64,000 nt of DNA from assembly GCA_965655095.1 (NCBI GenBank), contig OZ296658.1, positions 31,496,001 to 31,560,000 of the forward strand, given 5' to 3'. Below are positions 12,181 to 45,800 of this stretch, piece by piece. This DNA comes from Haplodiscus bocki (taxonomy: Eukaryota). How positions within the stretch are numbered: the stretch's first letter is position 1; each line of letters starts with the position of its first letter. The notes beneath the pieces are model-generated. The model did not search any database. It saw only the letters and a program-made list of their open reading frames with translations, and was not told the origin of the DNA. The position numbers and the translations under genes were made by a program.

Positions 12181-12691
12181 CTCCTGATCCAGTGCCAACC
12201 CACATTCCAGAATTCAAGTTAACAAAGAATTGATGATCATGCTCAATCATGTCCTTCCCCAAAAGAATATCAGGGAGCTCAGAACCGAATTTTGAAAATC
12301 ATGCATTTCACCCTTAAGAACGATTTTCAGTTGCATGCCTAATATTGAAGAAAATTCAAGAAACCTCATCAACTGGTATATCCATCTGATAGAACCGCAA
12401 AACTACCTTCATTGAAGACAAAACTTCACCAGAAGCCAAATAAAGTTGCAGAGACAACTATCCTGATGTATTTTAAAATCAAAAACACCATTGTCGAGAT
12501 ATTCCAATTTGAAAAGAAAAAACCCCATTGCATTCTCCTACACACACGAAACCCTCAGACTAAAGAAAAGAAATTATTTGCCGTCAAAGAAGGAACTCTA
12601 TACTAGCCATTTTTCGAAACAGTCTTCAAGCTTCCACATGCCATTCCGTCCAATCTACACCTAGCCGAACTAACAGCCATAACTGACTACA

Positions 12692-13093: not shown

Positions 13094-13104
13094 AAGTCGT
13101 CATT

Positions 13105-13535
13105 GCTGGTGGTGCCAGCTTTTTGTTCCTTATAGCTAGTGGTGCTAGCTCATTATCATTTACACTGGTGGTGCCAGTCATACTCATTAATGTTTTCTTT
13201 TCAGGTGCATTTAATTTTCTTAGCTAGTGGTGCTAGCTCAGTTCCTTCATACCACTGGTGGTGCCAGTGATGTTTGTTAACGATTTCTTTTCAGATACAA
13301 AATAAAATTCTCTTTCAGACGTCTTACTAATACCTTCCTTTTCAGCATTAACCAATTTTCTTTTCAGCGATTTGTTCCGGCTTAAACGTGCCGAAGAGTG
13401 TCTTTCCGGTTTAAAAGTACCGATTTGTCCCGGCTTAAAAGTGCCGAAGAGTGTCTTCCCGGTTTAAAAGTACCGATGTGTGGCGAGTTCCGGCTTAAAC
13501 GTTCCGAAGGGTGTCTTCCCGGCTTAAAAGCGCCG
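13105..13535 (+). promoter_or_regulatory. Arrays of covarying RNA hairpins and tandem splice-acceptor-like sites upstream of env
   Basis: Five hairpins with a TGGTG loop (13105-13269); five (Y)nCAG sites (AG ending at 13204, 13294, 13318, 13345, 13367); six CGGY-TTAAAMGY-RCCG hairpins (13378-13535). Confidence 0.6.
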
Positions 13536-13772
13536 ACGTGTTCTTCATTTTTTTGGCTACAGTTATCTCCCTGTCCAATACTTTCGACTTCAATTCATTT
13601 TAGCACCTTGACCAATCATTGTCATAATCTTTGAGTTTCTATGCACCAAATTTCTACATTGCCAAAGAGCCTCAGTACAAACCTTCTTCATCCTTCGGTT
13701 AGCGAATTGCTACTTTTATCTATGTAATAACATTTCTGTATATCAGCTAAAATCGGAGTAGCGTTTTCAATT

Positions 13773-15962
13773 GTGATAATGAATAGTGAAAACATGGCTA
13801 TCATAGTATGTGTTATATTTCTCTTGATACTAAATATGTCTATATGTGACAAATACGAACCCAAACGTGACGACATTGCACCTTCTGTACAAGTATCCCA
13901 CTATGACTGCAGCGAGATGACGGAAAACAACCTTTATTCACTGAACCAAGTCAAACTTTGTAATATGGCACCTCAGAATAATCAGATGAATGACGTAAAA
14001 CTGACTATGTACACCAAACACTTCCGAACTGAGATTAATGCTACAATTTGCCGAATCAAACACCAAGGAAACAAATTTCACTGCAGGATGCGTGATCATA
14101 CTAGTATGGATACTGAACAACCTCAGATAACAATTGACATAGACCTGACTCCTGAACAATGCAAACAAGCCTCCGAGGGAAGATCACTTACTCTATTTGA
14201 CCACAAACTGACTTTTGAAAAGGGCAAGAAAGAAATTCATCATAAATGGACAGGAGATAAAAGTGAAGATTACCGCAATGAATGTGATGGTAAAGGATGG
14301 ATAACCAAAGACACTTTCGAAAGTCATATACAAGATATCACTCTGAAAGTGAGAATTAAAGATGGCAAGATATTCAACCGAAATGATCAACTACTACCTT
14401 GTGACTTGGACGAACTTGGATGCGAAAGCACATCATTGGACCCAAATGCTTATACGTGGAAAGCCCCCGGAAATTGTATCTTATCAGTGCTAAAAGAACA
14501 CTATGCACACATGCTGAAGAATGATAACCTTTACTACATAGTTAGTCAGAACACTTCAGAAAACAAATACCTCTTCGAAGTAAAGAATCACCCTCAGCAT
14601 CTTTGTAATAAACCAACTGAAGTTTACCCAACTACGTACGATTCAATGTACGTTGCAATCCACTATGGAGACTTTGATATGAAAACAGGAGGAAAACTCA
14701 ACGAACTGGGACCTCATCTTCTACAGTATCAGAATAACGCCTTCCTCTCAAAACCTGGAAACCTCTACGTCTATAGTCCTCAACCCAAGCCAGCAGATCC
14801 ATAAATCAATACATGGTTAAAAATGGACTACGAACTACAACAAGGGACAAAACTTGACTACCTTTTCTTTGAGAGTTCCAGAGCATTACAGGCATCAGAA
14901 CTAAATCTATTGGAGAACCAATGCGAACAAGAAAGAATCCAAATTTTCACTATCTTGATGCTATCTCTTGAAAACCCCAGACTCGCTTGATACATGCTCA
15001 CTGGAAACAGATCAATGTTTCTCGAAACAGACGGAAGCCTAGCTTGGCTCTACTCCTGCCCACAAGTACGATCACCCTTATATATACTTAACCAATGCTA
15101 TGACAAGATACCCATCCTCTACAAAGGACAAATACAGTTTGTAGACCCCATTACCAGACAAACCTTGCCCGATGCTTTGCCACAGTTACAAAGGACAAAT
15201 ACAGTTTGTAGACCCCATTACCAGACAAACCTTACCCGTTGCTTTGCCACAAAATTGCTCAGACCCGATCAAGAACTTATTCCAAATGGATATGGACCAA
15301 AAAACTCATGGTACTCCCTGACACCTGAAATCACCCATAGAGACAGACCTGCAGTATTCGCCCCCAAACACATATCTCCCTTCACTACGCAAAGGTTCCC
15401 TGAATCAGCTAAAGCAGGAATGTATACAAAAGGACAACTTAGTGAAATTTGGGATGCCATCCTAATGAGTTCAGCATCAAAGAATGCCTTACAGAAATTT
15501 ACACGAAACTTGATAGTCCCCTCAAACGCAAAGAAAGGCCCCGACGGATATACCTACTATGTACATCGAACCGACTTCTTTGTAGATAACATGATATCTT
15601 CGAGTTATTTTGAGAACAAATTTGTCCAGACCTTTGGGACCGTTGGCTATTGGCTCGAGAAATGTGGAATCTGGTTCGCCATATTCGTCTTCGTAAAATT
15701 GATTATTGACATTGTTGTCACTGTAATGAGAACCTTAGAAATACATCGGATAACTGGAAGACCAGTCAGTTTTGGAAAAGTCCTTCTATCAGCCACTTAC
15801 AACTTGTTTATGGTTTCAATATTGAACTCAATCTATTCACCAGCCAAACCCATTGAGTCTTCAACACCTATAGTTGTAGAAATGCAAGAATCGACTGAAC
15901 ATACCTATCCCTCTATTCAAACACAACCCAATAATGTCCCTAACACCGTTTCACCCGTTTAA
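13773..15962 (+). pseudogene. env: Envelope glycoprotein, chuvirus-G-like (class III fusion protein-like), interrupted
   Basis: Signal peptide (MAIIVCVIFLLILNMSIC); HYDC..LYSLNQVKLC..CRIKHQ..FHC(R)MRDHTS Cys pattern recalling the chuviral G N-terminus; C-terminal TM (GIWFAIFVFVKLIIDIVVTV). In-frame stops at 14802 and 14988; 67-bp internal duplication at 15120-15251. Confidence 0.75.
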
Positions 15963-15992
15963 AGTATTTACTATGTTTTCAATTTTAGCATT

Positions 15993-16451
15993 ATGAACCA
16001 AGAAGACTATTCCTTCTCCGATTTAGATTCTCCCCTGTCTGAAGACAATTTCACAGAAGATGATCTTCTTCAACTTCCTGAATTATTTCCTGAAGAGCCA
16101 AATACCCCTTCTAATCAGATCTCTATCACGCACGAGCTGGAGAACCTCTCCCTCACACCAACTGACAAACCTACCAGTGCCTTAAACATTAGACCCAGAA
16201 AACGAAAATCAACTACCCCCTCACGACAACTGTTTCGTAAACAGAAGAAAAGCGAAGAAGCCACGTCCAAATATACTGCTACCCAAAACCCTCAGTTCCA
16301 ATTTAATCTAACCTACAAATTTAAGGAAAGTATAAATCAGTGGAGAATAGTATTTTGGGACCCCAAACGACAAGAATTCACCCTAGAAAACCCATCACTC
16401 AACTACCCACGATTATCTGTACCCCTTAGGTCAATTTCAGCTTTCTGCTAA
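15993..16451 (+). CDS. Unknown 152-aa ORF (acidic N-terminus, RPRKRK NLS-like motif)
   Basis: ATG follows an acceptor-like ttttcaattttag; ends 2 nt before the TRAF-like ORF, so it may be its frameshifted N-terminus. Confidence 0.5.
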   Translation: MNQEDYSFSDLDSPLSEDNFTEDDLLQLPELFPEEPNTPSNQISITHELENLSLTPTDKPTSALNIRPRKRKSTTPSRQLFRKQKKSEEATSKYTATQNPQFQFNLTYKFKESINQWRIVFWDPKRQEFTLENPSLNYPRLSVPLRSISAFC

Positions 16452-16453
16452 AC

Positions 16454-17200
16454 ATGTCCCAACCTTCGCTAAAAGAGAAATTCGAAGACGAACAACTTCT
16501 TAGTACCGCCCTTGCTATTGAACTAGAAGACGTTAAGAATACCTTAGCCCAACTGAAACTAGACCAATCCAAACCCTTACACAAAGGACCCTTCAGCCTG
16601 AATATAGATTACTATATGAAGAAAATTTTCAAAGAAAAGGACGATTTTGAATCTCGATTATAGAAACTAGAATCGGGAGAACAACCCCGTGATTGGAATC
16701 TGTATAAAATTATCTGGAAATTAGAGGACTTTTTAGTCGGATTCAACAACGCCAAACAATTCGAAGAGATAAAGAACAAAAATTTTGCTGATCCAAACCT
16801 AGCACGCGATTTCTACAGCACAGCTTTTCTCAGCAAACCTTATGGCTACAGTTTCTTTATCCGCGCCTTCCCTTATGGATGTGGCCCAGCACTTAGCAAA
16901 TCAATGTCTGTCACTATATCTCCGATAGCCGGGCCCTTCGATGATATTCTCACTTGGCCCTTCAGAGGAACAATCCAAATCAGTGTTTTCAGACAAGACA
17001 ATTCTGGTTTAATCTGGACTAACCTTCTAAAAACCAATGATAAAACGACACCCTGTTTCTCACGACCATCACCCCTACAACGAAACCCGAGTTGTGGTAC
17101 CTTCTTCTACCTTCCCCATGAAGAGATATTCAAGACACAGAAGAATCTAATAAAGAACGACAATGTCAATATCCAAATAAAGATCCTTGACTTCCCTTGA
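16454..17200 (+). pseudogene. Coiled-coil + TRAF-type MATH (TRAF-C) domain ORF with one premature TAG
   Basis: 16454-16663 and 16904-17200 are in one frame. Reading through TAG 16661-16663 gives ..IIWKLEDF..DFYSTAFLSKPYGYSFFIRAFPYGCGPALSKSMSVTISPIAGPFDDILTWPFRGTIQISVFRQ..CFSRP..NPSCGTFFYLPHEEI..LIKNDNVNIQIKI, collinear with the TRAF-C consensus (IWKI, YSPPFYT..YGYK, G.G.G..LS, GEYDALL.WPF, SF.RP, YVKDD.IFIK). Confidence 0.85.
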
Positions 17201-17241
17201 ACCCCGGTTTCAATTTCAACAATCGTGAATCCAGGGTGAGA

Positions 17242-18619
17242 TGTCGTATTCGACATACAGCAGAAAGAAAAAGAAAAAGAAAAGCTGCGAAAAACTAGAC
17301 TTAAAAATGTAATTTTTTAAATCCGCCATTTTGAATGCCGTTGCGCAAGTTCGAACATGTCCCAAATTCGTTTACAAGCCAGAACTAACGCCGCCATGAC
17401 ACCTACCTTATATGGACATCGGCGTCACTCAACTGAACAATAGACTCAATTCCCGAGATAATAACGTCATCTGACGTCATCTGACTTAATGTGTGTATTA
17501 ATGTTATGAATACTGACGACTCCCAAGTCACGTGACTAGGTCACGTGGCTGACGTCATTCTCGGAGCCAATCCTGTGCTATCTTCATTCTGATTCGCTCC
17601 CGAGAGCACAAAATTTAGTAAAGATAGCGGCCGAAATTTGCACCTTCAGAGAGGCGCCTTTCCAGCTCAGATCAGATGTCCAACGATCCGTGAAGTCACT
17701 CCACCCATTTTCCAACAACAGCAGTTCGAGCCCAGTGCAGTATTCTTTGAGCGGTTATGTTTTCACTTTTGTTTTTATTTCTAACCTTTTCTTTGGGTGA
17801 TATTTTCTCTATAATCTAACTTTAACTCTCTTTTGATGTAAACTAAATAACCAAGTAACCAAGCTTAACTCCTAACTAATAAAAACAGTAAAATAACTAA
17901 GTTTAACTTTAACTTTAAAACTTAAACTTTACTTTAACTTTATTTAACTTTAACTTTAAACTAAGATATAAAATTGTGTATGTGTTCAAATCCTCTGTGA
18001 GGTGGTCTCGTCAAGTACGGACTTAACAGCCTTGGTCACGTACCGGCTTGATATTTGGAAAATACTCAAGTCCTCCTTGAGGTAGTCTCGCAAGTCGGAC
18101 TTATTCAACCTTGGTCACGCACCGGTTGCTAAAATACTTAAATATCACTAGACCTAATAATTTTTCTTATTTCAACATTCTCTTAAGGTTGACTGATGAT
18201 TCTTTTAGACGTCCTTGTTTTCATAATATTGATAATACTTTTCCGCCTTTATATCATACCTTTGTATCTTGATTTATTCTGTTTGCCTTGATATTTTAAT
18301 ACCGTTAACTTTTCTGATATTTTGTCTTTCTGAAGTTGTTGAAAATTGTAAGTCACCAGTTGATACTACTTCTGAAACTAATTCATCTGTTTATAATAAC
18401 AAGGTTTCTTCACAATATTCACCAGATAGAAAAAGTCCTTCCTTTCGAACTCACGCCTGAGACGACCTTTGTTGAAGTGCAGGAAGGCAACGGTCGCAAA
18501 ATTGAATTAGGAGACTTGTCCTGAGTTTCGGGATAGTTTCTGACTGGGAATAGAGTGGCTTTTGAGACTTTCCACTGCTATTTCATCAACCCAAAACCAC
18601 ACCATTTACGCACTTCACT
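17242..18619 (+). repeat. 3' LTR of element A
   Basis: Copy of 6421-7805; terminal TGACA altered to TCACT; followed by TSD TAAG; preceded by a weak purine tract agggtgaga. Confidence 0.95.
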
Positions 18620-20037: not shown

Positions 20038-20809
20038 TATAACGGTCGCTAATTTAATCTGCCTTTTGGCTAAATTCAAGCGTCTCTCGCATGATCTATA
20101 AACAAAGAACTCAAGTCTTAACAAGTGAGTCAAGTACCCTCGATAGTACTTGTTAAATACTTGACAAAACTTGGACAAAACTCTAACAAAACTCCATAGC
20201 TACCTTATCAGAAACAATGTATACTCATAATATTCAAAACATATTCTATTAACGTTATACAGTATACACTCACATTATTAAACACAATACTTTCACATAT
20301 TGAATTTTCGTTGCAGTTATAAAATATACAATGTTCTTCTAATCTTTAAACATAGAACATTTCATACCAACCTTGCAATAATACTTTTATTTAAATATTA
20401 CATTGAGACCCTTGATTTGTGTGCTTGATCTTGAGACCTTTCGCCCCGATGATTCACAAGTTCTAAACTAATTATAACGAGAAGAAAACGCAAAAATTGA
20501 CAAAAGACACAACACCTCGAACCGTCTTTGGAACAACATTTCAACAGAAAGCGCAGAAAATCGCAACCTTCATAAAACCGACCCTCAACTCTTCACTCTC
20601 TTGAAAATGTAAGATTTATTCTTTTTCTGTATTATTACTTTTTAAATAAAACTATTTAAACTCAAACGATTTCTCAACTAGAGCAATTCTAAGAAAAAAA
20701 AAGCACAATCAGAAAGAAACCTAATAAAACAACCGTCCGCGCATCCGAGAAGGAAAAATAGAAAAGAACTCTTGTCATGGATTTAACAATAAAAATCACG
20801 GTTGTTAAA
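20038..20809 (+). repeat. 5' LTR of element B
   Basis: Matches 33591-34361 except for about two substitutions and one A-run length seen by eye; ends are TATAAC...GTTAAA. Confidence 0.95.
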
Positions 20810-20810
20810 T

Positions 20811-20828
20811 TGGTGACAGGAGTGGGAT
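20811..20828 (+). promoter_or_regulatory. Primer-binding site, tRNA-Leu type
   Basis: TGGTGACAGGAGTGGGAT, 1 nt after the LTR; one mismatch from the complement of a typical tRNA-Leu(CAG) 3' end (TGGTGTCAGGAGTGGGAT). Confidence 0.85.
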
Positions 20829-21477: not shown

Positions 21478-22127
21478 GAAGTGCGTACCAAAAAAAAAAT
21501 TTTTTTCGGAAAATTGGTCGAAGTAGCATTTCATTTCCATTTTTTTGGGCAAACCACTATATGATGACCTCCCGGCAACCTCAAAAAAACCTCGTTTTCT
21601 GACAAATTGAAAGTTTTAAGTTAACCCAGTACTTCGAAAACGCCGAAACCTGTTCGTAGCTTCATGTCTACCTAGTCATTCAGTTGATGGGAACATTCAC
21701 TCTCGTTGTGTCAGCAGTACCGAACGCGCCAAAAAGGCCATTGATTATCCCCTGTTATCACTGTCAAATAGCTCAATTTCGTATTCCTGTAAAACATCAA
21801 GTTCAAAACACCCCATTGCTTAGCCCACATAACTCAAAACTTTTGTTGCACCAAAAACTTGAGGACTTTCACTACCATTATCATTCAAGTGAGATAGAAA
21901 CTTTCCCCAATTACACTCCTTCAGCTCCAAGTAGTACCTCTACCGCCGTACTTTCAACCACGTTTTTCACCAGATTGGGTGACATTTGGTTAGCAAACCT
22001 CGAAATACTTGGAATTTTTCTCGTCGCCTTCGGTACCTCAGACGTTTCAGTAAGCGCTCGTTTTAACCTCTTGTCGGAGCATCTCAAACTGCATCAGACC
22101 CTTTGAGTAGAGGTCGCAGAAAACTTG

Positions 22128-22430
22128 ATGCCACGTTATCAAGAGGACGACCGTCATTACGTCAATTTTCTTTGGAACTCGCCAGGTAACGGTATTCTAT
22201 ATATTAACAAAATTGTTTGGAACGGGTACGGGGACCCTATTAAACTTTTTGGGTACAATTTTCAAAACGTTCCGCCAAGTGACATTTGCGTTGAAGTTTA
22301 TCCCCACACGCCGAATTGGACCAGTCTCTACTGGCGTCTTAGTGAGTACCAGCATTTATATATCGATAACCCCGTCAACGAGCACGTTTTTGGAGAATTG
22401 GTTGACTACCTTGCCATAAACATCGAATAA
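22128..22430 (+). CDS. Unknown ~100-aa leader ORF upstream of gag
   Basis: ATG at 22128, aromatic-rich globular-like sequence, no recognisable motif. Confidence 0.4.
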   Translation: MPRYQEDDRHYVNFLWNSPGNGILYINKIVWNGYGDPIKLFGYNFQNVPPSDICVEVYPHTPNWTSLYWRLSEYQHLYIDNPVNEHVFGELVDYLAINIE

Positions 22431-22482: not shown

Positions 22483-23862
22483 ATGACTGAAGCCGAATCC
22501 GAAGTGGAACTAGGCGCAGCTGAGGAAAAGAGCACCACAGAGGCAGCCCCCCAGGGACCTGGAATTGCCACTAAGTCCACATCAACACCCGGAGCGGCCC
22601 CCTCGGCGCCAGCAGTTCTGCTGGAGGTGCACCTGGATTTTAAACTATCTACCCGACAGCAACTGCATTTCCTCCGTTGTCCGGAATGCATGGAGGACCT
22701 CCCAGCACAGCAGTTAACCTACCGTCATGCCTTATGCCCGAATCGTTCAACGGTTCTGGCGACTTCGAAGATTACATCCAACAATTCAATACAGCAGCCA
22801 TGCTGGCTGGCTGGCTTTCACCGAGACACGATCATCGGCCACAATACTTCGCACTTCGGTTGAGAGATAATGCGTTGCATTTCTACACCACTTTGTCTCC
22901 GGAGCAACAAGACGACTATGACTTACTCGTGGACGCATTTCGACAGAATTACACTACAAATGTCGATATTTTGAAAGCGCGCCTGAAAGCTGCCAAGCAG
23001 CAACCCGAACAAGAAATTGCCAACTTTCTTTGCGATTTACGAACTTTAGCACGACGCGCTTATCGCGCGAGCCCACACTTGATTGACCAGATTGTCCTGA
23101 CGAGTTTCGTAGAAGGATTAAAGAGTCCGACTCTTCGCTGGGAATTGAGGAAACCAAAACCCAGAACTGTGGAGGAAGCATTAACATTAGCAATAGAACT
23201 AGATTCGTTCATTGCACTGGAGAGGACAAACTATCCCGGATCCACCAGCCAAGGAAACTTCAGTGTCAACCAAATTGGCAGTGCAATCCCCCAGCCCGAC
23301 ACAATCGACGAACTCGTACGATCCTTAAGGAACGAGGTGGATAACATAAAGCGTTCCACACACCACAGAAACGATTCCTGTGACAAACACAGAAACCGAA
23401 CAGATTCACTGGATAAAAACCGAGAACGTAGTAATTCAAGGGACCATCAGCCAAATTATTTCGCCTCAACAGACCGCAATCAGCAGAACTCCAACTATTC
23501 AGGCGAAAAGCGAAACAATTCGCATGACAGGAATTCTCGATCTGTTCGTTTCGAGCTTCATAGCCGAAATGAAAGCGGTGGGCGGAAAAAATTACTCACG
23601 TTATGGATCCAGAGATCAGATACCGGAAAATCAGAGACAAAGCCCTTCTCACACGAAGACGCGAAACCAGCCAACCAATAGTCGTAGAAACGATAATTTT
23701 CAAAACACGCAGCGTAACTGCTCCAATAGCCACAGTCAACCCTGTCGTCATTGTGGACGATCAAATCATTTTTCAAACGAATGCAAAGCATGCTTCAATT
23801 GCAAACGCATCGGACATTTCCGCCGTGATTGCAAGGCTCCCAGAGCCAATTCGTTAAACTGA
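22483..23862 (+). pseudogene. gag: gag (capsid + two CCHC zinc knuckles) with frameshifts
   Basis: PESFNGSGDFEDYIQQF..LRLRDNALHFY capsid-like region (22677-23585). Removing one A from the A6 run at 23586-23591 joins it to CRHCGRSNHFSNEC and CFNCKRIGHFRRDC, ending at TGA 23862. Likely start ATG 22483 is separated from the rest by a frameshift (~22600) and TAA 22641. Confidence 0.88.
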
Positions 23863-26800
23863 AACAGTCTACGCCAGCGGGTCTTAGCGCAGACATGAAT
23901 ACAGACAATGGCCCACAACAAACTATTATTTTAAATTCGGTGGTCGACCCTCGTAGTGTTTTTGTTGCTATTCAGGTGTGTGATAAATTATTCGAAGCAG
24001 TCTGTGACTGCGGGGCAAGTGTTTTTTGTTTAAGCCCAGCCATTTTCGAAGATTTGCGGAAGACAAATGGGATTCAATTGAACAAGTGCAACAAGCACCT
24101 CAAGGCTGCTAATGGTCTACCTATCGGCGTTAAAGGGATTATCAGAGTCCCCCTTACGTTTGGAAACAAACATTACGAACATGAATTTCATGTGTTAGAG
24201 AACACTGAGACCGACTGCTTATTGGGACTAGATTTCCTGGAAAGTAATCAATGTGATCCTCTGTTTTCTCGGATGGAATTGAGACTCGATCCAAGCCATT
24301 CCGTTCGGATGTATCACAAAACTTTTGACTATCACACCAATACGGTCTTTCGAGTCGTAGCGACCGAAACTACCCTGGTACCAACAGGCCACACCAAAAT
24401 CCTTCCAGCACACATCCCAAATTGGAAGCGACCACCCGTCACCCTCAATGCTGTCTTCGAGCCCCAAAGCAAATTTTCAACTGAAAACGTATTTTCTGTT
24501 CCCAATATTTTGTTCAACTACTCCGAGGAAGTTATTCCAATTGCTTTAGAAAATAAAGCAGATACAGACGTGACTATTTACAAAAATACAACGCTTGGAT
24601 TCTCTGAAGTTATTCCGGATGGATGGTTGAATGGTATCAGCCCCATGCCGAAACCCCTTCCCGTCACTCAACTCAGCAAGTACGACCTGCGCCACGTTAC
24701 CCAGGCAATTGATTCCAGCGTCCCACCGGACTGCCAAAACAAGTTCCAAGATCTTGTTCATGAATATAAAAATGTTTTCTCAAAAAGTGAATGGGACCTT
24801 GGCAAGTGCGATGCAATAACACATAAAATTGAAGTTTAACCCGGTGCCAAACCAGTGAAGCTCCCGAACCGACGAATGCCCTTGCACTACAAGCAGGACT
24901 TGCAGGATAAGCTGGACGTTTTCTTAGAAAAAGACTTGATAGCCCCTTGTCACAGCACGTATAGCGCCCCCGCCATGTTGCTGCCCAAGAAAAACGGAAA
25001 ACTACGCCTCGTCATAGATTACCGCCAGCTTAACAAACAAACAATCAAGTCTAGCTGGCCGATTCCATCAATAGAAGAAATTTTCGACACGTTAGAAGGA
25101 AGCTCCTTCTTTTCTACAATCGACATGTCTGCAGGTTTTTATCAAGTCCCAATGGACACAACCAGTCAGAACTTCACCGCTTTCAGTACTCCTTTCGGTT
25201 CCTTTAAATGGCTTCGAATGCCAATGGGTCTCACGGGAAGCCCAAATACTTTCCAGAATCTGATTGAAAACATTTTGCTCGGCCTCACGTGGAAGTCATG
25301 TGTACCATACTTAGACGATTGCATCATCTTTTCGAGGACCCCAGAGGAACACGTTTCACGACTCCGTGAAGTTCTTCAACGCTTTCACAATGCTAATCTG
25401 GAAATTAATCCTGCAAAATGTTCCTTTTTTCAAACAAAAGTGCAGTTTCTGGGTCACATTGTCAGTAAAGACGGCCTCCAAGTTGACCCCGAAAAAGTTG
25501 ATGTCGTAAAAAAGTTCCCCATTCCGAAAAATCAAACTGAAGTCAAATCATTCCTGGGACTGGCATCCTATTATAGGCGCTATGTCTCTAATTTCGCCGC
25601 CATCGCCCGCCCTCTCCACAAGGCGAGTGAAACTTCCTCCGTGTTCTCTTGGACTGAAGAAGCCCAGGACGCTTTCGAAACCCTGAAAACCCGTTTAACA
25701 TCCACCCCCATTTTGGCCCTTCCGTGTCTCCAACAGCCTTTTATTTTGTACACAGATGCAAGTCAGTTTGCAATGGGAGCTGTCCTCGCTCAAGTACAAG
25801 ATGGTATGGAAAAAGCCATCTGTTACGCTTCCAAAGCACTTTCGAAGTCGCAGACAAAATATTCAGCAACTCGTCGCGAACTCCTTGCCATCGTAACTTT
25901 TACCAGACATTTCCGTCACTACCTGTTGGGACGGAAGTTTACGATCGTAACTGACCATAGGGCACTCCAATGGCTTCACACTTTCAAAGACCCGGACGGG
26001 ATGACCGCCCGTTGGTTGGAAAAATTAGCGTCGTTCGATTACACGGTTCGCCATAGGCCAGGGACGTCAATTGGTCATGCCGATGGCCTCTCAAGAGTCC
26101 CTTCTCATGAAGTAAATGTTGTTGCACAAAATAGCAGCGGAATTGAGCACCGAAACCAAGATGAAAGCAACCAGTGGGAACATTCCACTATGACACAAAA
26201 GAATGGTGACGACCATGCATCCACCAGTTCCGAGGAATGGCCTAACCGAGAAAACCCGCGAAATTCCCAATTTTCGCCAGACATTCTGAGTGCGCCACTT
26301 CGTTACCAAGAGATCATTGGCGACTTGTTCCATTCCACTGACTCCCTCGCCCATTGCGTCTCTGCCGACTTCAAAATGTCAGCCGGCATAGCGCGCAAAA
26401 TCCGGAGAAATTTTTCGACGAGCTATCCCATCAATTTGGATCATAGATTGAATCCACTGTGGCCGCAATGGATACCCAGCCAGAAAAGATACATTTACCA
26501 TTTGATTACCAAACAAAAGTTCCATAACAAGCCAACTTTTGGAACCTTGCGCGCCTCCCTCGAACGTATGCGGACGCATGCGGAGGAGAATGGAGTTCGT
26601 CAAATCAGCATGCCCTGCATTGGTTCCGGTCTCGACAAACTCGAATGGAACGTGGTTCGACAACTTATTCAAGACACATTCAGGACATCACCGGTTGCCA
26701 TCATTGTATACCTTAAAGAGGAACTGGGGTCAGCGCCATCACCGCAAGCAACCGCAGCCGCTAATCCGTTAGTCCGAGCGCAGCAAACTGACGAAAGCTT

Positions 26801-28511
26801 GAGACATGTCCGAGAATGGATTCGAAAAGGATATACACCCCGACACAATGACTTACAAGGCCTGCCTCGTCTAGGATGGCAAATGTATAACCAATTGGCA
26901 AGCCTTTACCTCCATGAAGATGTGCTTTGCCGAAAATTTGAACCCCTCGACGGCAGTGAGCCTTACCTCCAACAAATTATCCCTTCCGCCTTAGTCCCCG
27001 AAATTATTACATCACTCCATGACTCAGCTACAGCAGGATATTTGGGTACCTACAAGACGATAGAGAAAATACGACAACGATATTACTGGCCAGGATTTAA
27101 GGAGGACGTCAAAAAACATATTCGCTGTTGCGATCGCTGCCAAAAGCGAGCAGGACCTCCAAAGACACACCGGCATTCTCTCACCGACTGGCCGGTTAGT
27201 TACCCGTTCCACCACATTGGGTTGGACTTTCTTGGACCCCTTCCGATATCCAATAACTGTCAATATGTTTTGTTAATTGGTGATCACTTCACCAAGTGGT
27301 ACGAAGCTATTCCACTGCCCGATCAACGAGCTGAAACCACAGCCGACGCTTTACTAAACCACTGGATTTGTCGCTTCGGCTGCCCTCATAGCATACATAC
27401 CGACCAAGGTCGCAACTTCGAATCCGATCTTTTCCAGCAATTAATGCGACGATTAGAGATCAACAAAACTCGGACTACGTCCTTCCATCCTCAGTCCAAC
27501 GCTGTTATTGAACGAATGAACCGAACATTGTTGAATATGCTGTCGAAGTGTATAGATCAGAACCAGTCGGATTGGTCCACATTGCTACCGTTTGTTTTAA
27601 TGGCTTACCGATCATCGGTTCATGAATCCACAGGATTCACCCCATACTTTCTTGTGTTTGGACATGAAATGTCATTGCCACTCGACTTAATGTACACACC
27701 TCCTGAACACAGTGAGCCATCGTCTCTGAAAAAGCAGGTGTTAGAGCGACAAGAGGCCATTCGCAAAGCGTTTGAGCTAGTCCGCCGAAACACTACTGCT
27801 CAACAGCTCCGACGAAGTGCCTTGTATAATCGTAAAGTGCACGGACCAGTGTACAAAGAAGGTGACTGCGTTCTCCTTCATTACCCCGTCACCCCACCGG
27901 GTTGTAGCCCCAAGTTATCTAGCCATTGGCGCGGTCCTTACCGCATCATTAAATGCCTCAATGATGTAAACTACAAAATCGAAGAAATAGGCATTGGAAA
28001 GCAACTCATTGTCCATTATGATCGACTCAAACGGTACCATGGTGTCGTAGCTCCTACATCAATAATTCCCGAGCGTAACCCGATTTCCAAAAATGTTCCA
28101 ACCAGTACACAATCTACACGGTTTGACCACTCTGAATGTGAGTATATGACCTTTCCAACAACTTCATCTCTACCTTCTGCCCCTTCCAAGTCTTTTTACC
28201 GTCCACAGCCCATCGCCACGCCCATACCCGCTTCCCCTCGGCGCCCCTTGCCGCAGGAGTTCCCACCAACACCCTCGGCACCTCTGTCCTCTCACGATTC
28301 TTTCAACGCATCCACCCTTCCAGCCTGTTCCCCGTCCGCTAGTGGCAAAACGCCGCTCTCTGGAGTTACTCCAAAGGAGAGCTCCATTCCGACATCTGGC
28401 CGTCGAAGTATACAATCTGGCGAGCTACCGCCGTCAACACCTCCTGGTCCGTCCGGAAACGAAGCATCTTACTTCCACTCCACTTCCCCTTCTCCCCAAA
28501 CTCCACTCTAG
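23829..28511 (+). CDS. pol: pol polyprotein: aspartic protease, RT, RNase H, TARG1-like macrodomain, integrase; one in-frame TAA at 24837-24839
   Basis: PR: AVCDCGAS..LLGLDFL. RT: LRLVIDYRQLN, MPMGL, YLDD (25308-25319). RNase H: LYTDAS, RELLAIV, TDHRAL. IN: H..(Y)..CDRC, GLDFLGP, TDQGRNFES, NAVIERMNRTL, GPY. ORFs 23829 and 24855 are in the same frame. Confidence 0.95.
23853..23914 (+). promoter_or_regulatory. Candidate -1 ribosomal frameshift signal (G TTA AAC + stem-loop/pseudoknot)
   Basis: Heptamer 23853-23859 directly before the gag stop; pro-pol is in the -1 frame; stem 23867-23874/23887-23894 after a 7-nt spacer; loop GGGTC can pair with GGCCC 23910-23914. Confidence 0.7.
26298..26714 (+). 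other. TARG1/OARD1 (C6orf130)-class macrodomain inserted in frame between RNase H and integrase
   Basis: GDLF..TDSLAHCVSADFKMSAGIA..RYIYHLITK..KPTF..LRASLERMRTH..NGVRQISMPCIGSGLDKLEW..IIVY follows human OARD1 motif by motif (GDLF..DSLAHCISED.RMGAGIA, YIYYLITK, MPRIGCGLDRLQW). Confidence 0.92.
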
Positions 28512-28819
28512 ACTCTGTTATTGCAAGAGCCTCGAGGCACCTGAACGACCGTTTTCTTCGGGAACCTCCCCCACCATCCACAAGAGAATTGCGCGCTACT
28601 ACCGTGGCACAGCGCAAAGCGGAGCCACTCTGCAAGGCCCGCCTGCCCCCAAACGTTAACGCATTTTTCTCCCCTCGAAAGTCCAAATACCGCAATCGAA
28701 CCAAGCACCTCTAACCCACACTAACATCTAAACAGCCAATGCCATCGCCAAGTGATCTTTGAGTTTTGTGTTTCTTCAGGACACGCAACACACCAAAGAC
28801 GTCGACGAACATATTAGCG

Positions 28820-31162
28820 ATGGTCCTACTATTCGCTCTTACTGATATTGTTTTCACGGACGTTCAATTCACTACCCATTTAAGCGATGCATTGGACAAG
28901 CCAGTCTTCAAAAAAGGTGCAGCGTTTGTTTTCAAATACCAAGCTGTGACGCCCGAAAGTGAGAGTAAGGTTCGTGTGTTTTCACCGTTCCCCAAGATTC
29001 CGGATATCAATTTAACCGATGCCTATACAATTCTTCAAACACGAGGCCACACCGATTCGATGAATGGCATGGATACAGTCAAACTCTGTCGAACAGAGCG
29101 CATGGGTACCCTTTACGACCAACTATTCGACCAGCTGGAGGAGAAACTTTCCTTGATACAAAGAAAAATCGATGCTGCACACACAGATCAGAATCAACTA
29201 GTAGAGGTGGCCTCGTCCTTCTTGCCACCATCTATTAAGCCGGACCATGGAACAGCCCGTAGTAAACGCGCTGTGGGCATAATCGCAGCGGCCGCTGGTG
29301 CCGCCGGACTGGTTCTTGGAAGTCCAGTCAAAGACGCTGCATGTTCAGCGCTCTCCATCTTTAATCTATGCACAGACAACAAGGACCTAGAAGAAAATGT
29401 TGACCACGTCATGGCGACTCAGAAACAATTTCAAGCTGTGTTGGAAAGAGTACAGACAAAAAACGATGAGAATTTTTTTATTCTGGGGAATGAAATTAAA
29501 GACACACAGGAAAGTGTACAGAAAATAACGGAAATAGTTGGTGGCCAATTAAAACTCCTGCAAACGGAGTTGCTTCACATCAAAGGCGTAATTGCTTCAA
29601 TATCAGTATGTAACGTACACTTCACACAGAACATGATTTTCATGCAACAGATCCGCGACTACGTGGATCACTTGGGAACTCTGTACACACACATAAAATC
29701 CTACCGAGCCGCTTTTTACGCTTACAAAATTGCGCTCTTCTCCACAATCTCGTCACTTGCAGCTGGCTACGTCACCCCACAATTTCTACTTCCTTCCCAA
29801 TTGGCCACAATAGTAAGTGAGCTCGCCAGCGACGAGATCTTCAGAGGGACCAAACTCTCCCCAGCGATTCGCGCAGGACAAGAAGCCATTTACTACGAGA
29901 TCCAAATGGTTTTGGAAGTCTCCCTCCTTTCCCGAGGCATCTCGGTAGTCCTTGGAATTCCCATGAACTCAAAAAAACCTTTCAACGTTTTCCAGGCTAC
30001 CCCCCTTTATCAGCCCAACGATGACGGTGACACTGCTTCTATATATCACTTCTCCAACTCACTTCTCGCAGTCTCCACTGACAATAAACGTTTCGCCGAA
30101 CTTGACGCCTCAAGCCTTCAACAATGTTCGGGTAATAACCGTATCCAAATTTGCAGGCAGGGATTTTCTACCACTACTGACGAAACACTTCTTTGCTTAC
30201 CTTCATTGTTTTACAATTACGATATTCCATCCCTGAGAAATTGTAAAGTGGAATCTGTTCTTCTGCCCGATGCACCACAAGCATTTTATTTAGCAGACGG
30301 CATGTATCATATTATCTCACGAGATCCCAACATCCAGATGAAAAACGATAGTGGTGCCGCAGGTTTCTCCATTTCATCATTATCATGTCAAGCGTGCCTT
30401 GTTCGCCCAAGTTGTAGCAGCAAACTTTCTTTCAATCAAGGGGACCTAGAATTGGTTCCTGACATGGATTTTTGTAAAAACAATCCAGAGCCATTGCTGG
30501 CTACGATCGAACTTACCCCCTCCCTTGATCAAATTTTCAAGCAAGTACCGAACGCAACTCACAAGTTTCACACCTATTCTATTGCTGAAGCACGGCAGTC
30601 CGTTTTGAGCACCGTCCGTCTTGAATTAGCAGAAATTCCGAATGTCAAACGCATGTCTCCGGAAACTCTTGCAGATCTAACTCGCCCCATTGCTAAGTAT
30701 TACTCGTCCATCTCACCGGCCACATCAGCAGCTCTTTCCTCATATCTCCCCACTCGAACGGCTGTCCTTTTTTCTCTGATTTCTGTCACGTTGTCTCTAC
30801 TCACTTTCTGTATTAGCTTCACCCTCTTTCGTCGACAATGGACACGTCTGTTTGCTCATCCACAGCGCTTCTTCCGTGGAACATCTGGTCGTTCTCTCCA
30901 CATTGTGGAAGACTCTCAGCCCACTGCTTCTGATACCTCCTTTCTGTACTTGTCAGTAACCGAGTTCAAGGCTCTACAGGCTCTTGCCAGAGAAGCTCTT
31001 CACCGTACTAGTCTAAACGTTCCACTCACTCCTCCTGAAACTATTAACATTACTAACAACCCTACTAATAACACCCCGATCGTTTCAGCCCCTGTTACTA
31101 ACGTTCCACAACGTGCATACCCCTTAATTAGCGCCCCTATTTACAGTGCCCCATCCAACTAA
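28820..31162 (+). CDS. env: Envelope glycoprotein, class I F-type fusion protein (intact)
   Basis: Signal-like MVLLFALTDIVFT; furin site RSKR (29258-29269) followed by fusion peptide AVGIIAAAAGAAGLVLG; heptad-repeat helix; Cys-rich region; TM AVLFSLISVTLSLLTFCISFTLF; cytoplasmic tail. Acceptor-like gtttcttcag ends at 28779. Confidence 0.88.
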   Translation: MVLLFALTDIVFTDVQFTTHLSDALDKPVFKKGAAFVFKYQAVTPESESKVRVFSPFPKIPDINLTDAYTILQTRGHTDSMNGMDTVKLCRTERMGTLYDQLFDQLEEKLSLIQRKIDAAHTDQNQLVEVASSFLPPSIKPDHGTARSKRAVGIIAAAAGAAGLVLGSPVKDAACSALSIFNLCTDNKDLEENVDHVMATQKQFQAVLERVQTKNDENFFILGNEIKDTQESVQKITEIVGGQLKLLQTELLHIKGVIASISVCNVHFTQNMIFMQQIRDYVDHLGTLYTHIKSYRAAFYAYKIALFSTISSLAAGYVTPQFLLPSQLATIVSELASDEIFRGTKLSPAIRAGQEAIYYEIQMVLEVSLLSRGISVVLGIPMNSKKPFNVFQATPLYQPNDDGDTASIYHFSNSLLAVSTDNKRFAELDASSLQQCSGNNRIQICRQGFSTTTDETLLCLPSLFYNYDIPSLRNCKVESVLLPDAPQAFYLADGMYHIISRDPNIQMKNDSGAAGFSISSLSCQACLVRPSCSSKLSFNQGDLELVPDMDFCKNNPEPLLATIELTPSLDQIFKQVPNATHKFHTYSIAEARQSVLSTVRLELAEIPNVKRMSPETLADLTRPIAKYYSSISPATSAALSSYLPTRTAVLFSLISVTLSLLTFCISFTLFRRQWTRLFAHPQRFFRGTSGRSLHIVEDSQPTASDTSFLYLSVTEFKALQALAREALHRTSLNVPLTPPETINITNNPTNNTPIVSAPVTNVPQRAYPLISAPIYSAPSN

Positions 31163-31446
31163 CTCTTCTCAAACATGTGTGACTTCCTTTTATCTATCAC
31201 CTCTTCACTGAGCATCTTCACCTGAATTTATGTAGAACTGAGATGGCGTTTCCGCGTCTCTAGTGAGCAGATCTCCTCTGTTTCTGCACATGGCATGTTT
31301 CCGTGCCTTCTTTTCCGTTGCTCAGTTTTGCGAACACGTTTCCGTGTTTTCAATAAATATCATATGTTTCCGTATGTCTCTCCTTCTGAAGCCCCCCTTT
31401 TTTTTCAATCCATGTGATCGAACGGTAATGTTTTGTTTTTTTTAGG

Positions 31447-32526
31447 TCTTATTTCAACTTCTTCGAACGACCCCAACAATCGTTGCCTGTACTGACTAGC
31501 TCGGGACGATTCCACTCTGTTGCAGTCAATGACCATGTCTTCTTGGTTGAAGATTTACAATATCGGGTGACAAAGATCTTTCCCGTGGAAGGTAGCGTTC
31601 GGCTCCAAAAGATCAATTGTCGTGATTGCCCCTTCAAGCGCTCCTTGAAGCAAATCTGGTTGCCACCCCCTGTCACTTGTGAGGTCTCAGTAACGGCCGA
31701 TTTGCCTACGGCCAACTGCTTCTGCCCCGAGCCCATGCCTCCTCAAATTCTACCTGACAATTCTGATTCCGCTGTGCAAGTGGATTTGCCTCAACGTGAT
31801 GCGATGGATGAGTGGGTTTCCTTGATGACGGACTACTCCTCCGTCGACAATCTCGAACAGGCTGTTTCCGAGGCTCGCAAACAGCTCGAACAGTCGCAGC
31901 AGCAACTTCGATCCACTCAGCAAGCAGAAGCCGCTTTGCACTCTCAAGTTGCGTCTTTGACTACGGAAGTAGAGCATCTTAGGTCCCGTCTTCAGGATCT
32001 TACTGCCACCCACAATGATCTGATGAACCACTCTATGGCACAACTTGAAACAATCGGTTCACTGCGCAGCCAGCTCACGAACAAATCGTCGAATGTTGAA
32101 CCCATATTACGCCTCTTACGACAGTTACTCCTAACCCTACCCACCGACTTCGACGATGACCTGACACCGGATGACACGTTGTATCACTTCCTTTGCTGTG
32201 CGCCTGATGCCGACACCGCCACACTTTCCGGGAATGCTAACTTGTTGTTGAAATGCTTACACCCGGACAAATCCCCAACACCTGAAGACCCTCTGGTACA
32301 AGCAGCCGGCCGCCTGGTGACTTTAATCACCCTGATAAAGCGGACACTCACCACTCCAGCCCTCCGTCAGGTCTACAATCATTGTGGACTGGAGGGGCTG
32401 CGCCGTCTTCTGAAAGGCACTCTACGATGCCCGCGATGTACCCCGAGCGCACCCAATGGGTTTCCCGCGCCCCAAGGACGTCTCGAATATCCTCAATTGG
32501 AACTGCTACTCAATTACGGCACATAG
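31447..32526 (+). CDS. Accessory ORF: Cys-rich N-terminus, coiled coil, C-terminal DnaJ-like J-domain (HPDK)
   Basis: Frame is open from the acceptor-like ttttgttttttttag (AG 31444-31445). 32179-32400 reads LYHFLCCAPDADTATLSGNANLLLKCLHPDKSP..LTTPALRQVYNHCGLEGL, versus J consensus YY.ILGV...A....IKKAYRKLA..YHPDKNP..LSDP.KR..YD..G.EGL. Confidence 0.8.
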   Translation, partial: SYFNFFERPQQSLPVLTSSGRFHSVAVNDHVFLVEDLQYRVTKIFPVEGSVRLQKINCRDCPFKRSLKQIWLPPPVTCEVSVTADLPTANCFCPEPMPPQILPDNSDSAVQVDLPQRDAMDEWVSLMTDYSSVDNLEQAVSEARKQLEQSQQQLRSTQQAEAALHSQVASLTTEVEHLRSRLQDLTATHNDLMNHSMAQLETIGSLRSQLTNKSSNVEPILRLLRQLLLTLPTDFDDDLTPDDTLYHFLCCAPDADTATLSGNANLLLKCLHPDKSPTPEDPLVQAAGRLVTLITLIKRTLTTPALRQVYNHCGLEGLRRLLKGTLRCPRCTPSAPNGFPAPQGRLEYPQLELLLNYGT

Positions 32527-33307: not shown

Positions 33308-33590
33308 CCTCCACAGATTCAACTTCACAATCGCCACAAGGATCTACATACCGGTTCACCCCACAAGACGCTTCTCTGCTGCAGTCACCGCCATACTTAA
33401 CCTCCCGCTCCTAACAGTACACCATCTTCTTCCACTTTACCAAACCCCTTTCTTCTTCTTGTCGGCTCTGTTGCCTTCTGGTTGCTCCTCTTTAGACTCC
33501 TTCAGTGGTGGTCTTCGAGGGGTCACTGGCTGGACAACAGTCCCGGCTTTCTTCCATTGCGAGGACGCAATCTAACAGCAGAGGGACTGT

Positions 33591-34361
33591 TATAACGGTC
33601 GCTAATTTAATCTGCCTTTTGGCTAAATTCAAGCGTCTCTCGCATGATCTATAAACAAAGAACTCAAGTCTTAACAAGTGAGTCAAGTACCCTCGATAGT
33701 ACTTGTTAAATACTTGACAAAACTTGGACAAAACTCTAACAAAACTCCATAGCTACCTTATCAGAAACAATGTATACTCATAATATTCAAAACATATTCT
33801 ATTAACGTTATACAGTATACACTCACATTATTAAACACAATACTTTCACATATTGAATTTTCGTTGCAGTTATAAAATATACAATGTTCTTCTAATCTTT
33901 AAACATAGAACATTTCATACCAACCTTGCAATAATACTTTTATTTAAATATTACATTGAGACCCTTAATTTGTGTGCTTGATCTTGAGACCTTTTGCCCC
34001 GATGATTCACAAGTTCTAAACTAATTATAACGAGAAGAAAACGCAAAAATTGACAAAAGACACAACACCTCGAACCGTCTTTGGAACAACATTTCAACAG
34101 AAAGCGCAGAAAATCGCAACCTTCATAAAACCGACCCTCAACTCTTCACTCTCTTGAAAATGTAAGATTTATTCTTTTTCTGTATTATTACTTTTTAAAT
34201 AAAACTATTTAAACTCAAACGATTTCTCAACTAGAGCAATTCTAAGAAAAAAAAGCACAATCAGAAAGAAACCTAATAAAACAACCGTCCGCGCATCCGA
34301 GAAGGAAAAATAGAAAAGAACTCTTGTCATGGATTTAACAATAAAAATCACGGTTGTTAAA
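33591..34361 (+). repeat. 3' LTR of element B
   Basis: Copy of 20038-20809, preceded by purine-rich agcagaggga (PPT-like) and followed by TSD CAAC. Confidence 0.95.
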
Positions 34362-42846: not shown

Positions 42847-45800
42847 TTTAGGGGTTGAAGGACGAGCCTAAAAGTAATGTCGAGTCATTAGTCCACGTGA
42901 TCGATTCCCCTCCTCTTTGGGAGCCCAACACAGTTAGTCGGACCTCACAGATGCATATGGTCCGGGCAACTCAGTGTTGTCCGTAGTCCGGATTTGGATC
43001 GTTTGTTGTCAGCAGTTTTGTTAACAGAGGTGCTAGTTTGTTTTTGTAACGTAATAATTTTGAATGGCGACCAGAGGAATGACAGAGGATCTGTGACCTG
43101 AGAATCGCAATAAAGAAGATCGCGAATTGCACTTCAAGATGGTTACTACCCAGGCACTGGAGAGAGTGTTTTACAGATTTTTTTCGACTCTGAGGGCATG
43201 AAAATGACCTTGATTGTACTGAGGCATAATTTTTGGTAGTTGAAGAAGAAATTACTTCTACTTTTGAGAAAAATTGTGAAAATTTCCGCTGTTTTTGATA
43301 CTTTCAGGGTAACCTTTAATTAGCTTCTTCTATCATTTTTCACTCTCGGCTTTTCGGATGGTTGTTTGCTTCAATTTCACGTCATGTTGTAACATTTCAA
43401 CGGAACCAGTCAAAAACCAACCCAAAGAAACTTTCAAATGAGTAAGTTCTCTTTCAAATTAGTCTACGTGTTCGACCTCGAGCGAACTCTCACCAAGATT
43501 CACAGTCCCAATGCCGGTTAATTCATCGCGAGTGTTTCTGAAAAGGGAAAGGAAACCCCAGGCGACCGATCAGGAAGCACTCAATTGAGTTCCCATTTTT
43601 CTGCCAAGTTCTCGTATGAATCCTCAAGAGGACTATCTGAATTTTTAGGTTTCATATACGTTTCTGTTCAGATGCAGGCCTAGCACCCTAAGTTGGATCT
43701 CTAAGCGTCAAGGCGTCAAAACAGCTTGATTGTCCTTCCAAACAGTGCAAATACAATTAGTGAACTTGCTGCCAGCACCAATGAGCAAGAATGACGCCAA
43801 GCAGTTGAAGGGTGAAGAGAAAAAGGAACTGAAGAAACCTTCAAAAGAATCACCAAACAGTCTCGTACAACCGCGAGAAACGTCCAATTCTTCTCTTGGA
43901 ACCGGTCTCTTTGACAAAGCAACGAAAAAAAAAGTCACTGCAAAAGTTATTTCAAGAGTGACTTTTCAGCTGGAAACTTAATTTATGCAGTTCTTGCCGA
44001 CTTTGTATTCCCTTTTTGCGTTTCGGTTGAGAATCGAGATGTCCAGCCAACAGATTCCGCTAATTTTTTCGTCATTTTCACGCCTAAAGTGAATTGTTGA
44101 CTACGCAGGGCCCAACCAAAGCCTCTCGTAAGTCTTCAAGACTCAAGAAAGTTCAACGTTAGCCTGCGGTGACGAGTTTTCTGGAAATACTATAAGCACA
44201 GAACTTGACATAGTAGAAGTTACAATGGGATTCATCTGAGTGTTTACGTGACTTGAAACAATTGACAGGCATTTTTTATGGGAACTTCATCAAAATCCGG
44301 CCTTTCCATGAAAAACTTCAAGCAAAATTGGTGAAAAACAGCCTCGTTTGAGGGTCAATTCAGCTAAATCAATACTTCTGGCCAAAGTTTTATTATTAGG
44401 CCAACTCAACTAATATTTTAGGTCGAAAGTTATTATTGTTTTCACACAAGATATTTTACAAAAAAATTGCAAACAATCGCGTTGATATGGCAATCCTTTC
44501 CATCCTGTCAAGGTCAAGACCAACCCAAAAACGAAATTAAACCCCCACAGTGTAATTGGAATTGCCTTCGATACTTCGCTTCTTTTGCACTGGAGGAGGA
44601 AAAGTTAGTTGTTTTCTTTCGACTTGCGGTGATAATCCTAAGTGACACCAGCATGAGCATCAACCGGACCAAATCAGCCGAGTGCCCTGGAAGGAATCAC
44701 AGCAACGGCATCAATCAATATTTGTAATTGATCATGAGATACCAATTCATAGTTGGTCATTCCGTGTTGTAGATAGTAATTCATCTTCAAGTTTTGATTT
44801 TCTTGGATGTGTAATTGTTGCCGGAATGTCAATTGGAATATGCAGTTACATGCCTGGAGATGGGACAAAAATTCAAATTTCATCCTCGGCAAATCACAAA
44901 CAAGCTTGGGAGACAAGCAACACCACCGTTGAAAGAGTCAGGGTCAGTACGAATCCTGCTGGTCTTTGTTGGATTAGAGCTGAACACGGAAGCCATGGTA
45001 GTCAAACAAGGCTACTTAACCCAAAAACTCTTCTTTGGGAAGGAACAGGTATGTTGTTGGACCCCTTGGAGTGGATTATTGTAGTCAGGCTCAAAATGAT
45101 CAAGAAGTGTTTGTAGTGTCTTCAACCAGCATAGTTTTATCGGCACTGGAGCAAGGCAATCAGTGATGACAAATTTGTTTTCCGCTCAAACTAGCCTGAG
45201 TTGCCCCTTACAGTATGCCAGTAGCACTAGATTGCTGTCACAATTGCAATTTTGGACTGGCAGACTGCCATTGCTTTGTTATAGTAGGATTCATACTGCG
45301 AGCCAAGTTTATTCTGTTCAGCGGCTGTCCTTTCAATGACGTCGTTTTTGAAAAGATCATCCCTGAGACAAAATGATGTGTTGGTGGAATTGGAAAAAAA
45401 ACTAGTCATTACGGATACACACCAGGACAGCTGCTTTTCATGATGAACCTACAGGAGAACCAAACTTTTCGGTTTCTGTTTTAAGAAAAAGTGCATCGGA
45501 GCCTTGGGAAACCAGAGCCATGAAATCAAGTGGGAAAACTCATCCAGAAAAGTTACTTGTGCTTGAAACAATTCCAGTCACCGGGGTGAACGCAATGGCC
45601 AACCATCTTTCGCTCTGGTTGACACTGTGAGCGTTTTGAGATCCGACCAGATAATTTTATGTAACTTTATGTCGGATGAGGAATTTCACCGATGAAACAA
45701 AAATTTTAAATCTTGTTGTCAACATAGGAGAAGATGAGTTCTTAAAGTTACGTAAAAAAACTCAGAATCAAAATACATATAACGATGTGAATATCAGTGA

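Follow-up and report, generated by a model that had tools for sequence, protein, structure and literature searches.

The window, by which we mean the whole 64,000-nucleotide stretch of Haplodiscus bocki DNA analysed here, contains a 14.3-kb Ty3/gypsy LTR element, present as a copy that, although recent, is interrupted in gag and again between the protease and the reverse transcriptase (RT). LTRs, a primer-binding site (PBS), gag, and a pol in the order protease, RT, RNase H and integrase were all present, and two further genes, the J ORF and ORF5, are located between env and the 3' LTR (Table 1). The pol of the window copy has a stop between its protease part and its RT part, while the related elements L051 and L053 have continuous pol frames of 1598 and 1646 codons, respectively. 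A Macro domain (PF01661, 22.4 bits against a cut-off of 22) lies between RNase H and integrase at positions 26484-26666 (residues 549-609 of the frame at 24840), and similar sequence is present in related elements. The env ORF carries an RSKR site and, after it, a hydrophobic peptide rich in Ala and Gly, both recognised as sequence motifs; a Pfam search of env returned no match, and from these features we take it to be presumably of the F type. ORF5, which has a basic C-terminal tail, was kept at 57-59% in two other sub-lineages, while in L062 and L034 it does not follow the J gene. Searches of Pfam, PDB and the Atlas with ORF5 gave no match, and its invariant FGASS, PG and WHD.I.NS motifs may, by eye, resemble the G-x-S block I and the later G, N and H blocks of SGNH/GDSL hydrolases. 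The long 5' UTR contains two small ORFs (21687-22106 and 22128-22430) with weak matches (E ~5e-4) in other lineages.

Table 1. Features of the Ty3/gypsy element and of its J-domain accessory gene (positions in the window)
Feature	Position	Strand	Evidence or remark
5' LTR, Ty3/gypsy element	20038..20809	+	99.6% identity to 3' LTR over 772 nt; 2 mismatches, 1 gap
Predicted leader splice donor in LTR	20607..20614	+	exon ends AT at 20608, intron starts GTAAG at 20609
Primer-binding site	20811..20828	+	TGG start, adjoins LTR; 9-nt start common to 8 elements
gag, capsid and CCHC knuckles	22483..23862	+	Retrotrans_gag 3e-8, zf-CCHC 4e-8; overlapping broken frames here
pol: protease, RT, RNase H, Macro domain, integrase	23829..28511	+	Pfam matches, ORFs
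env exon, presumably F-type	28780..31162	+	phase-2 splice acceptor with AG up to 28779 and G as next base; hydrophobic leader
J-gene polypyrimidine tract and acceptor	31428..31446	+	AG up to 31445; next base, G (31446), is predicted third base of AUG
J-domain accessory gene	31447..32526	+	359 codons after split start codon; 3' of env
N-terminal KOW/Tudor-like beta-barrel, residues 10-75	31474..31671	+	six predicted strands, pLDDT 73-89
Long helical/coiled-coil segment, residues 116-229	31792..32133	+	heptads, model
J-domain, residues 240-314	32164..32388	+	HPD at 32260-32268; profile and fold
Probable zinc site, (C/H)C-G-x12-14-CxxC	32380..32439	+	Cys/His conservation
ORF5, second accessory gene, 202 aa	32699..33307	+	present in only some lineages
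3' LTR	33588..34361	+	purine-rich tract just before LTR

The J frame had been described in the original prediction as an intact ORF, and it is indeed open for 359 codons, but it has no methionine before residue 97 and is not self-starting. Comparison of 14 chosen lineage representatives showed that the acceptor in front of the J gene is in the same phase (phase 2) in all 14 and that the first exon base is a guanine in 13 of them; the one lineage with an adenine at this position has its own ATG at codon 1. The acceptor was found at 18 of 20 further loci and was absent from one; the last is broken upstream. On the donor side, a single GT[AGT]AG occurs within the 400 nt ahead of the PBS, and it was preceded by AT in 8 of 8 5' LTRs, L057 being excluded from this count because no PBS was found in it. 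The probability of this donor pattern arising by chance is 0.03-0.07 per LTR, and the product of these values overstates significance because the pattern was widened from GT[AG]AG (present in 4 of 8 LTRs) after looking and because L043 and L045 are one lineage. A phase-2 AG/G acceptor followed by a hydrophobic leader was observed for env in three of eight elements. The candidate donors in the 5' UTR and in the 100-aa ORF at 22128 were rejected, those with an upstream ATG being in the wrong phase. The AUG of the J gene thus appears, as read from the DNA, to be made only when the AT of the LTR is spliced to the G of the acceptor, as for env. Formation of the env AUG by splicing of an AU dinucleotide from a leader is described, in the available text, for the springer subclade of Drosophila (10.1101/2023.08.03.551782). 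Genes of the J type would be missed by annotation because their AUG does not exist in the DNA. When the genome was searched for processed copies, the best 40 of 106 candidates all spanned the acceptor, in a search that does not favour partial matches. In four runs of contigs, which extend into the flanking DNA as well, none of 15 joints out of 67 fell on a predicted splice site, an outcome that carries no weight either way. A further AT/GTGAG site is present at 32630, between the stop of the J gene and an acceptor-like tract before ORF5.

The structure model of the J-gene product was made from a 31-row alignment (mean pLDDT 79.9, pTM 0.42) and consists, in order, of a small beta-barrel, a low-confidence Pro/Cys linker, a long helix, the J-domain and a C-terminal subdomain. 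The architecture expected beforehand, a coiled coil followed by a J-domain, was recovered in both of its parts, but the N-terminal barrel and the C-terminal Cys/His motif had been overlooked. The long coiled coil is located at residues 132-215, with 71% hydrophobic residues at positions a and d in the best of seven registers and a pLDDT above 90. The barrel resembled DSIF KOWx-KOW4 in VIA (Z 7.2, rmsd 2.3, 60 residues aligned; KOW domains at Z 6.9-7.2) and NusG-CTD, Spt5 and the SMN Tudor domain in Foldseek with middling scores (E 0.06-0.2), while Pfam had no match for it and the Atlas had no usable match for residues 1-115. The Cys/His motif that follows the J-domain is strongly kept among the 31 rows (C or H at 312 in 31, C313 in 30, C328 in 31 and C331 in 28) and is a probable zinc site, metal binding being suggested by this conservation. 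Neither a signal peptide nor a membrane segment was evident in the sequence or in the model, and the product is therefore expected to be cytosolic or nuclear.

Homologue profiles and the predicted fold agree that the J-domain-like segment of ORF 31447-32526 is a true J-domain homologue. The HPDK tetrapeptide occupies residues 272-275 (nt 32260-32271), and residues 301-318 form the L..P..R..Y...G.EGL end, both as first noticed. The comparison with Pfam DnaJ (PF00226) was divided, the window domain falling under the cut-off and its homologues in sister lineages above it. The isolated window segment matched the family at E=0.007 and 16.9 bits (cut-off 27.8) over model positions 2-63 of 63, and DnaJ was absent from the best 25 Pfam families when the whole window protein was used. 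The sister-lineage homologues, which can be aligned over the whole length of the window protein, scored 35-58 bits, and PF00226 was matched at E<=0.01 by six of eight lineage representatives (best 3e-14). The family profile, which includes the window protein, matched solved J-domains, DNAJC5 being the best (6e-14). Since the homologues align end to end with the window protein and match PF00226 and solved J-domains, we consider the window domain to be a diverged member of the J-domain family.

In the AF2 model, the J-domain has a pLDDT of 85-95 and the four-helix J fold, with H272-P-D placed between predicted helices 257-271 and 282-302. The top row of Foldseek was the human J-domain 2ej7 (E 0.023, TM 0.66 by target, rmsd 1.9), and the best rows of VIA other than coiled coils were J-domains, including that of Ydj1 (Z 7.4, rmsd 2.3, 73 residues aligned), a Z of about 7 being in the range that this tool calls common. 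The DnaJ proteins of Hokovirus and Yasminevirus were matched in BFVD (E 0.011-0.03). These whole-protein searches with Foldseek, VIA and BFVD gave no fold match at E<=0.001 or Z>=8, and a single-sequence PDB search with the window protein gave coiled coils only. A first fold made from eight close sequences was poor (pLDDT 61), and its best Foldseek row was a J-domain at E=1.1. A word-based homologue search with residues 225-359 returned 67 proteins, nearly all at least 60% identical and none of them named. Class A and class B DnaJ proteins have an N-terminal J-domain followed by a G/F-rich region and substrate-binding domains. The J-domain of the window protein occupies residues 240-314 of 359, and neither a G/F region nor a DnaJ_C match was found in this protein.

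We then compared the residues that would face Hsp70. Helix II of the window domain has a single K/R in the 17 residues before HPD and a net charge of 0, in agreement with the earlier remark that the usual basic residues are lacking there, while at least four K/R precede HPD in 19 of 20 host J-domains. Three or four K/R are present in helix II of lineages L046, L048 and L054 and of P0163, a protein from the profile search described below. The net charge of this helix is 0 to -1 in the window lineage and several sister lineages and +2 to +4 in others. Helix III of the window domain has a net charge of +3, and 22 of 31 rows have a K/R at position 298. The charges of the two helices were anti-correlated (rho -0.59, on rows that are not independent). 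We propose from these charges that the basic patch has shifted from helix II towards helix III in the window lineage. Basic residues of helix II are key for Hsp70 binding, helix III is used by auxilin and by the polyomavirus T antigen, and J/Hsp70 interfaces vary widely, according to the text available for 10.1101/2020.01.13.901538.

When residues 232-359 were modelled together with ATP and L090, a cytosolic Hsc70 of the host whose gene is intronless, the predicted complex scored 0.57, the best of three controls scoring 0.00, which supports the pairing weakly. The contacts agreed at 89% or more between runs, and the partner pLDDT was at least 70. Of 78 solved pairs, 51 attained the mark for a complex, as did 2 of 108 mismatched pairs; the passing scores of 0.60 or lower include only five solved pairs and all four passing mismatches. 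As J-Hsp70 complexes are already solved, the score of 0.57 may reflect likeness to them only.

A scan of the 1.5-Gb assembly showed that the window protein belongs to a large family, with at least 113 matching places in its own genome (the best 113 of 1826 candidates) and many copies of the J gene with open frames. When the genome was scanned with PF00226 (best 150 of 666 candidates), sets of matches with identical scores were found at many places below the host genes. Nine high-scoring multi-copy J sites were examined with about 17 kb of context, and in seven of them the J ORF comes immediately after gag, pol and env genes that are homologues of those in the window; the other two are a truncated remnant and a tandem array of 5'-truncated J ORFs. 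This array (L055 and L056, G000:C10:69.55-69.59 Mb) has a period of about 2.7 kb and mostly open frames of 267 codons, and amplification or domestication is possible. The J proteins of these lineages are 21-59% identical to that of the window from end to end, and H, P, D, CG and CxxC are invariant in eight rows. HPD was conserved in 29 of the 30 closest copies and in 28 of 31 family rows. That the element itself encodes a J-domain protein, as the original prediction had it, and conserves it is borne out by the position of the gene behind env across lineages and by the retention of HPD. Neither of the two outcomes named beforehand as speaking against the prediction, the absence of a J fold or profile match and the loss of HPD in related copies, was observed.

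Of 13 pairs, the five that are unsaturated gave a dN/dS of 0.10-0.18 for the whole J ORF, which indicates purifying selection; the remaining eight pairs were saturated (pS>0.75 with pN 0.23-0.35). Values of 0.04-0.16 were obtained for the J region (0.04-0.09 for pairs of the window lineage) and of 0.04-0.18 for the barrel, all computable values being well below 1. The RT and J-ORF trees of seven lineages had all three supported splits in common, the rate of change being much higher in the J ORF than in RT. Comparison of L045/L046 with L047/L048 showed near-identical RT and identical env (568/568), while the J ORFs were only 57% alike (183/323) and the interiors of the LTRs differed. We attribute this to an exchange of the 3' cassette between lineages, because env is identical and the J ORFs are only 57% alike.

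A branch with a support of 99/94, on 77 columns only, separates the 31 J-domains of elements from 16 host J-domains, and this arrangement is consistent with a single capture of a host J-domain. The best-scoring host J-domain, that of L100 (51.8 bits, the next being at 40.2), shares an eight-residue helix II stretch with lineage L046, and the 77-column tree does not resolve the host donor. A profile search of 1.84 billion representatives gave, among the 150 matches listed, mostly family members and ordinary J-proteins. One of them, P0163, has the layout of the family but a best identity of only 26-29% in the genome studied here, and for these reasons it is probable that the family exists in one or more further organisms; a word search and the viral contigs gave no relatives of P0163. 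Another, P0211 (Macrostomum lignano by source), was rejected as a second case because its J-domain groups with host domains and not with the element clade. It has two copies of the J-domain around pieces of a gypsy integrase and may be a gene-model chimera or an independent capture.

The window protein has the four-helix J fold and the HPD of the class C J-domain proteins DNAJC5, DNAJB8 and Ydj1, but it differs from them in being encoded by a mobile element, in having its J-domain near the C-terminus, after a barrel and a coiled coil and before a Cys/His motif, and in its uncharged helix II. Like the polyomavirus T antigen, with whose J-domain the virus recruits Hsp70 of the host (PMC7356129, in the text available), it is a J-domain protein encoded by a genome of the viral type; no sequence link between the two was found, and the comparison does not go beyond the shared fold. 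A DnaJ gene is also described, in the accessible text of PMC7016691, as g118 of the endogenous nimavirus Nimav-1_LVa. The viral DnaJ genes known from giant viruses, phages and polyomaviruses belong to DNA viruses, whereas the gene described here belongs to a reverse-transcribing element, stands alone, is predicted to be spliced and has an unrelated architecture. The element shares with errantiviruses, in the broad sense of PMC13524379, the LTR-gag-pol-env organisation, the integrase after RNase H and an env that is presumably F-like, but has genes 3' of env, one apparent leader for env and the J gene, a donor located in the LTR before the PBS and a Macro domain in pol. The main text of that survey contains no mention of DnaJ, J-domain or accessory, and its supplementary tables could list related elements. 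Host-derived genes have likewise been added to other LTR elements, such as the GDSL/DEDDy ORF3s of bdelloids, the MATH/BCL2 genes of planarian Burro and those of foamy-like fish ERVs, and the available text of the two papers (PMC5408684, PMC6431247) has no occurrence of DnaJ or chaperone. Full-text searches of a literature collection that covers few subscription journals or repeat databases gave no case of an LTR element or ERV with a J-domain gene. Viral J-domains and accessory ORFs of LTR elements were thus known; what appears to be new, on the sequence evidence, is that a retrovirus-like element has, as an accessory gene under selection and predicted to be spliced, one for a J-protein whose architecture is novel.

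The J protein is most likely an Hsp70-recruiting accessory protein, and that it actively recruits Hsp70, whatever the client, we hold to be probable. An ancestor of this complex retrovirus-like Ty3/gypsy element would have captured a host J-domain once, and an accessory protein would have been formed around it. The 5' LTR would contain a short leader exon that ends in AU and is spliced to acceptors starting with G to form the AUG of env and of the J gene, and the spliced RNAs of both would lose the PBS. The product would then act in the cytosol or nucleus as a client-targeted class C J-protein, in which the KOW/Tudor-like barrel would select the client, the coiled coil would oligomerise or space the ends of the protein, and the zinc-braced J-domain would recruit host cytosolic Hsc70 and trigger its ATPase through HPD, as in the established J-protein mechanism. 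The likeliest client would be the Gag ribonucleoprotein or particle of the element itself, whose assembly, trafficking or uncoating would be assisted during the env-expressing phase. What points to this client is the position of the gene and the shared leader, and we put it forward tentatively, as a plausible reading that falls somewhat short of probable.

The same recruiter could be aimed at the host instead, the barrel docking on a transcription, RNA-silencing or chromatin complex that Hsc70 would dismantle so that silencing is relieved. This is possible but rather unlikely in our judgement. The barrel resembles the Spt5/NusG KOW and SMN/SPF30 Tudor folds, although small SH3-like barrels are common and the Z is only about 7. 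The J ORF outpaces RT by far in its evolution and has changed hands between lineages that have the same env, as expected of a gene in conflict with the host, and since it was swapped under near-identical core genes, a host client fits at least as well as a tightly co-adapted client of the element; all computable dN/dS values, including those of the barrel, are nevertheless well below 1. The T antigen acts on Rb-E2F through its J-domain (PMC7356129, as far as its available text goes), silencing of transposable elements by the host can itself use a J-protein with Hsp70, as reported for SILENZIO in the accessible text of PMC8616336, and the elements of this genome carry other host-like genes, a TRAF-type MATH ORF and the Macro domain. 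A wider version of this reading, in which throughout the clade a split-AUG leader switches on env together with an Hsp70-hijacking protein directed against the silencing or transcription machinery of the host, with an interface rewired from helix II to helix III and convergent with the T antigen, seems unlikely to us.

It is quite unlikely that in the window lineage the domain is a decoy or acts independently of Hsp70. With its J fold and HPD retained but helix II neutralised, it would in that case bind Hsp70 yet fail to stimulate it, compete with the J-proteins of the host, or act as an interaction domain that zinc stabilises. We kept this explanation for the window lineage because helix II is uncharged here and basic in sister lineages, and the longer helix III, the lower Pfam score and the weak complex score agree with it. 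However, HPD is strongly constrained in these very lineages (J-region dN/dS as low as 0.04-0.09), which is the expected mark of catalysis, and basic residues were gained in helix III, J/Hsp70 interfaces being reported to vary widely (10.1101/2020.01.13.901538, in the text available). That the ORF is only a passenger, either a captured host fragment or a chance frame that is unexpressed, would fit the lack of an ATG before residue 97, but the conserved donor and acceptor supply the missing AUG, many copies have open frames, and the ORF is under purifying selection and was kept across lineages that are 21-59% identical, so that we regard this explanation as very improbable.

The general view has been that retroelements and retroviruses borrow host chaperones and do not encode them. 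A selected J-domain gene across a broad and recently active LTR clade would mean that a retroelement is able to carry an Hsp70 adaptor of its own. Recruitment of Hsp70 by the J protein would extend to a retroelement a strategy known from DNA viruses, suggests that elements can steer the chaperones of the host, and would give a direct handle on the action of Hsp70 in the retroelement cycle. The family also offers a natural series of J-domains, from canonical ones to those with a neutral helix II and an intact HPD, that would be useful for working out the rules of J/Hsp70 recognition. If host silencing were the target, this would be the first chaperone-based counter-defence in a retroelement.

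Other features were observed elsewhere in the window. A second, decayed LTR element at about 6421-18560 contains a fusion glycoprotein of the Monjiviricetes type (13731-15962) and a TRAF-type MATH-domain ORF (16664-17200, E 5e-17), which is another host-like gene 3' of env. Diverged direct repeats at 42874-43029 and 53576-53729, 10.7 kb apart, are probably the LTRs of a third, older element. An intronless gene on the minus strand (55042-56028) encodes a secreted-type protein with PAN and C-type lectin domains.
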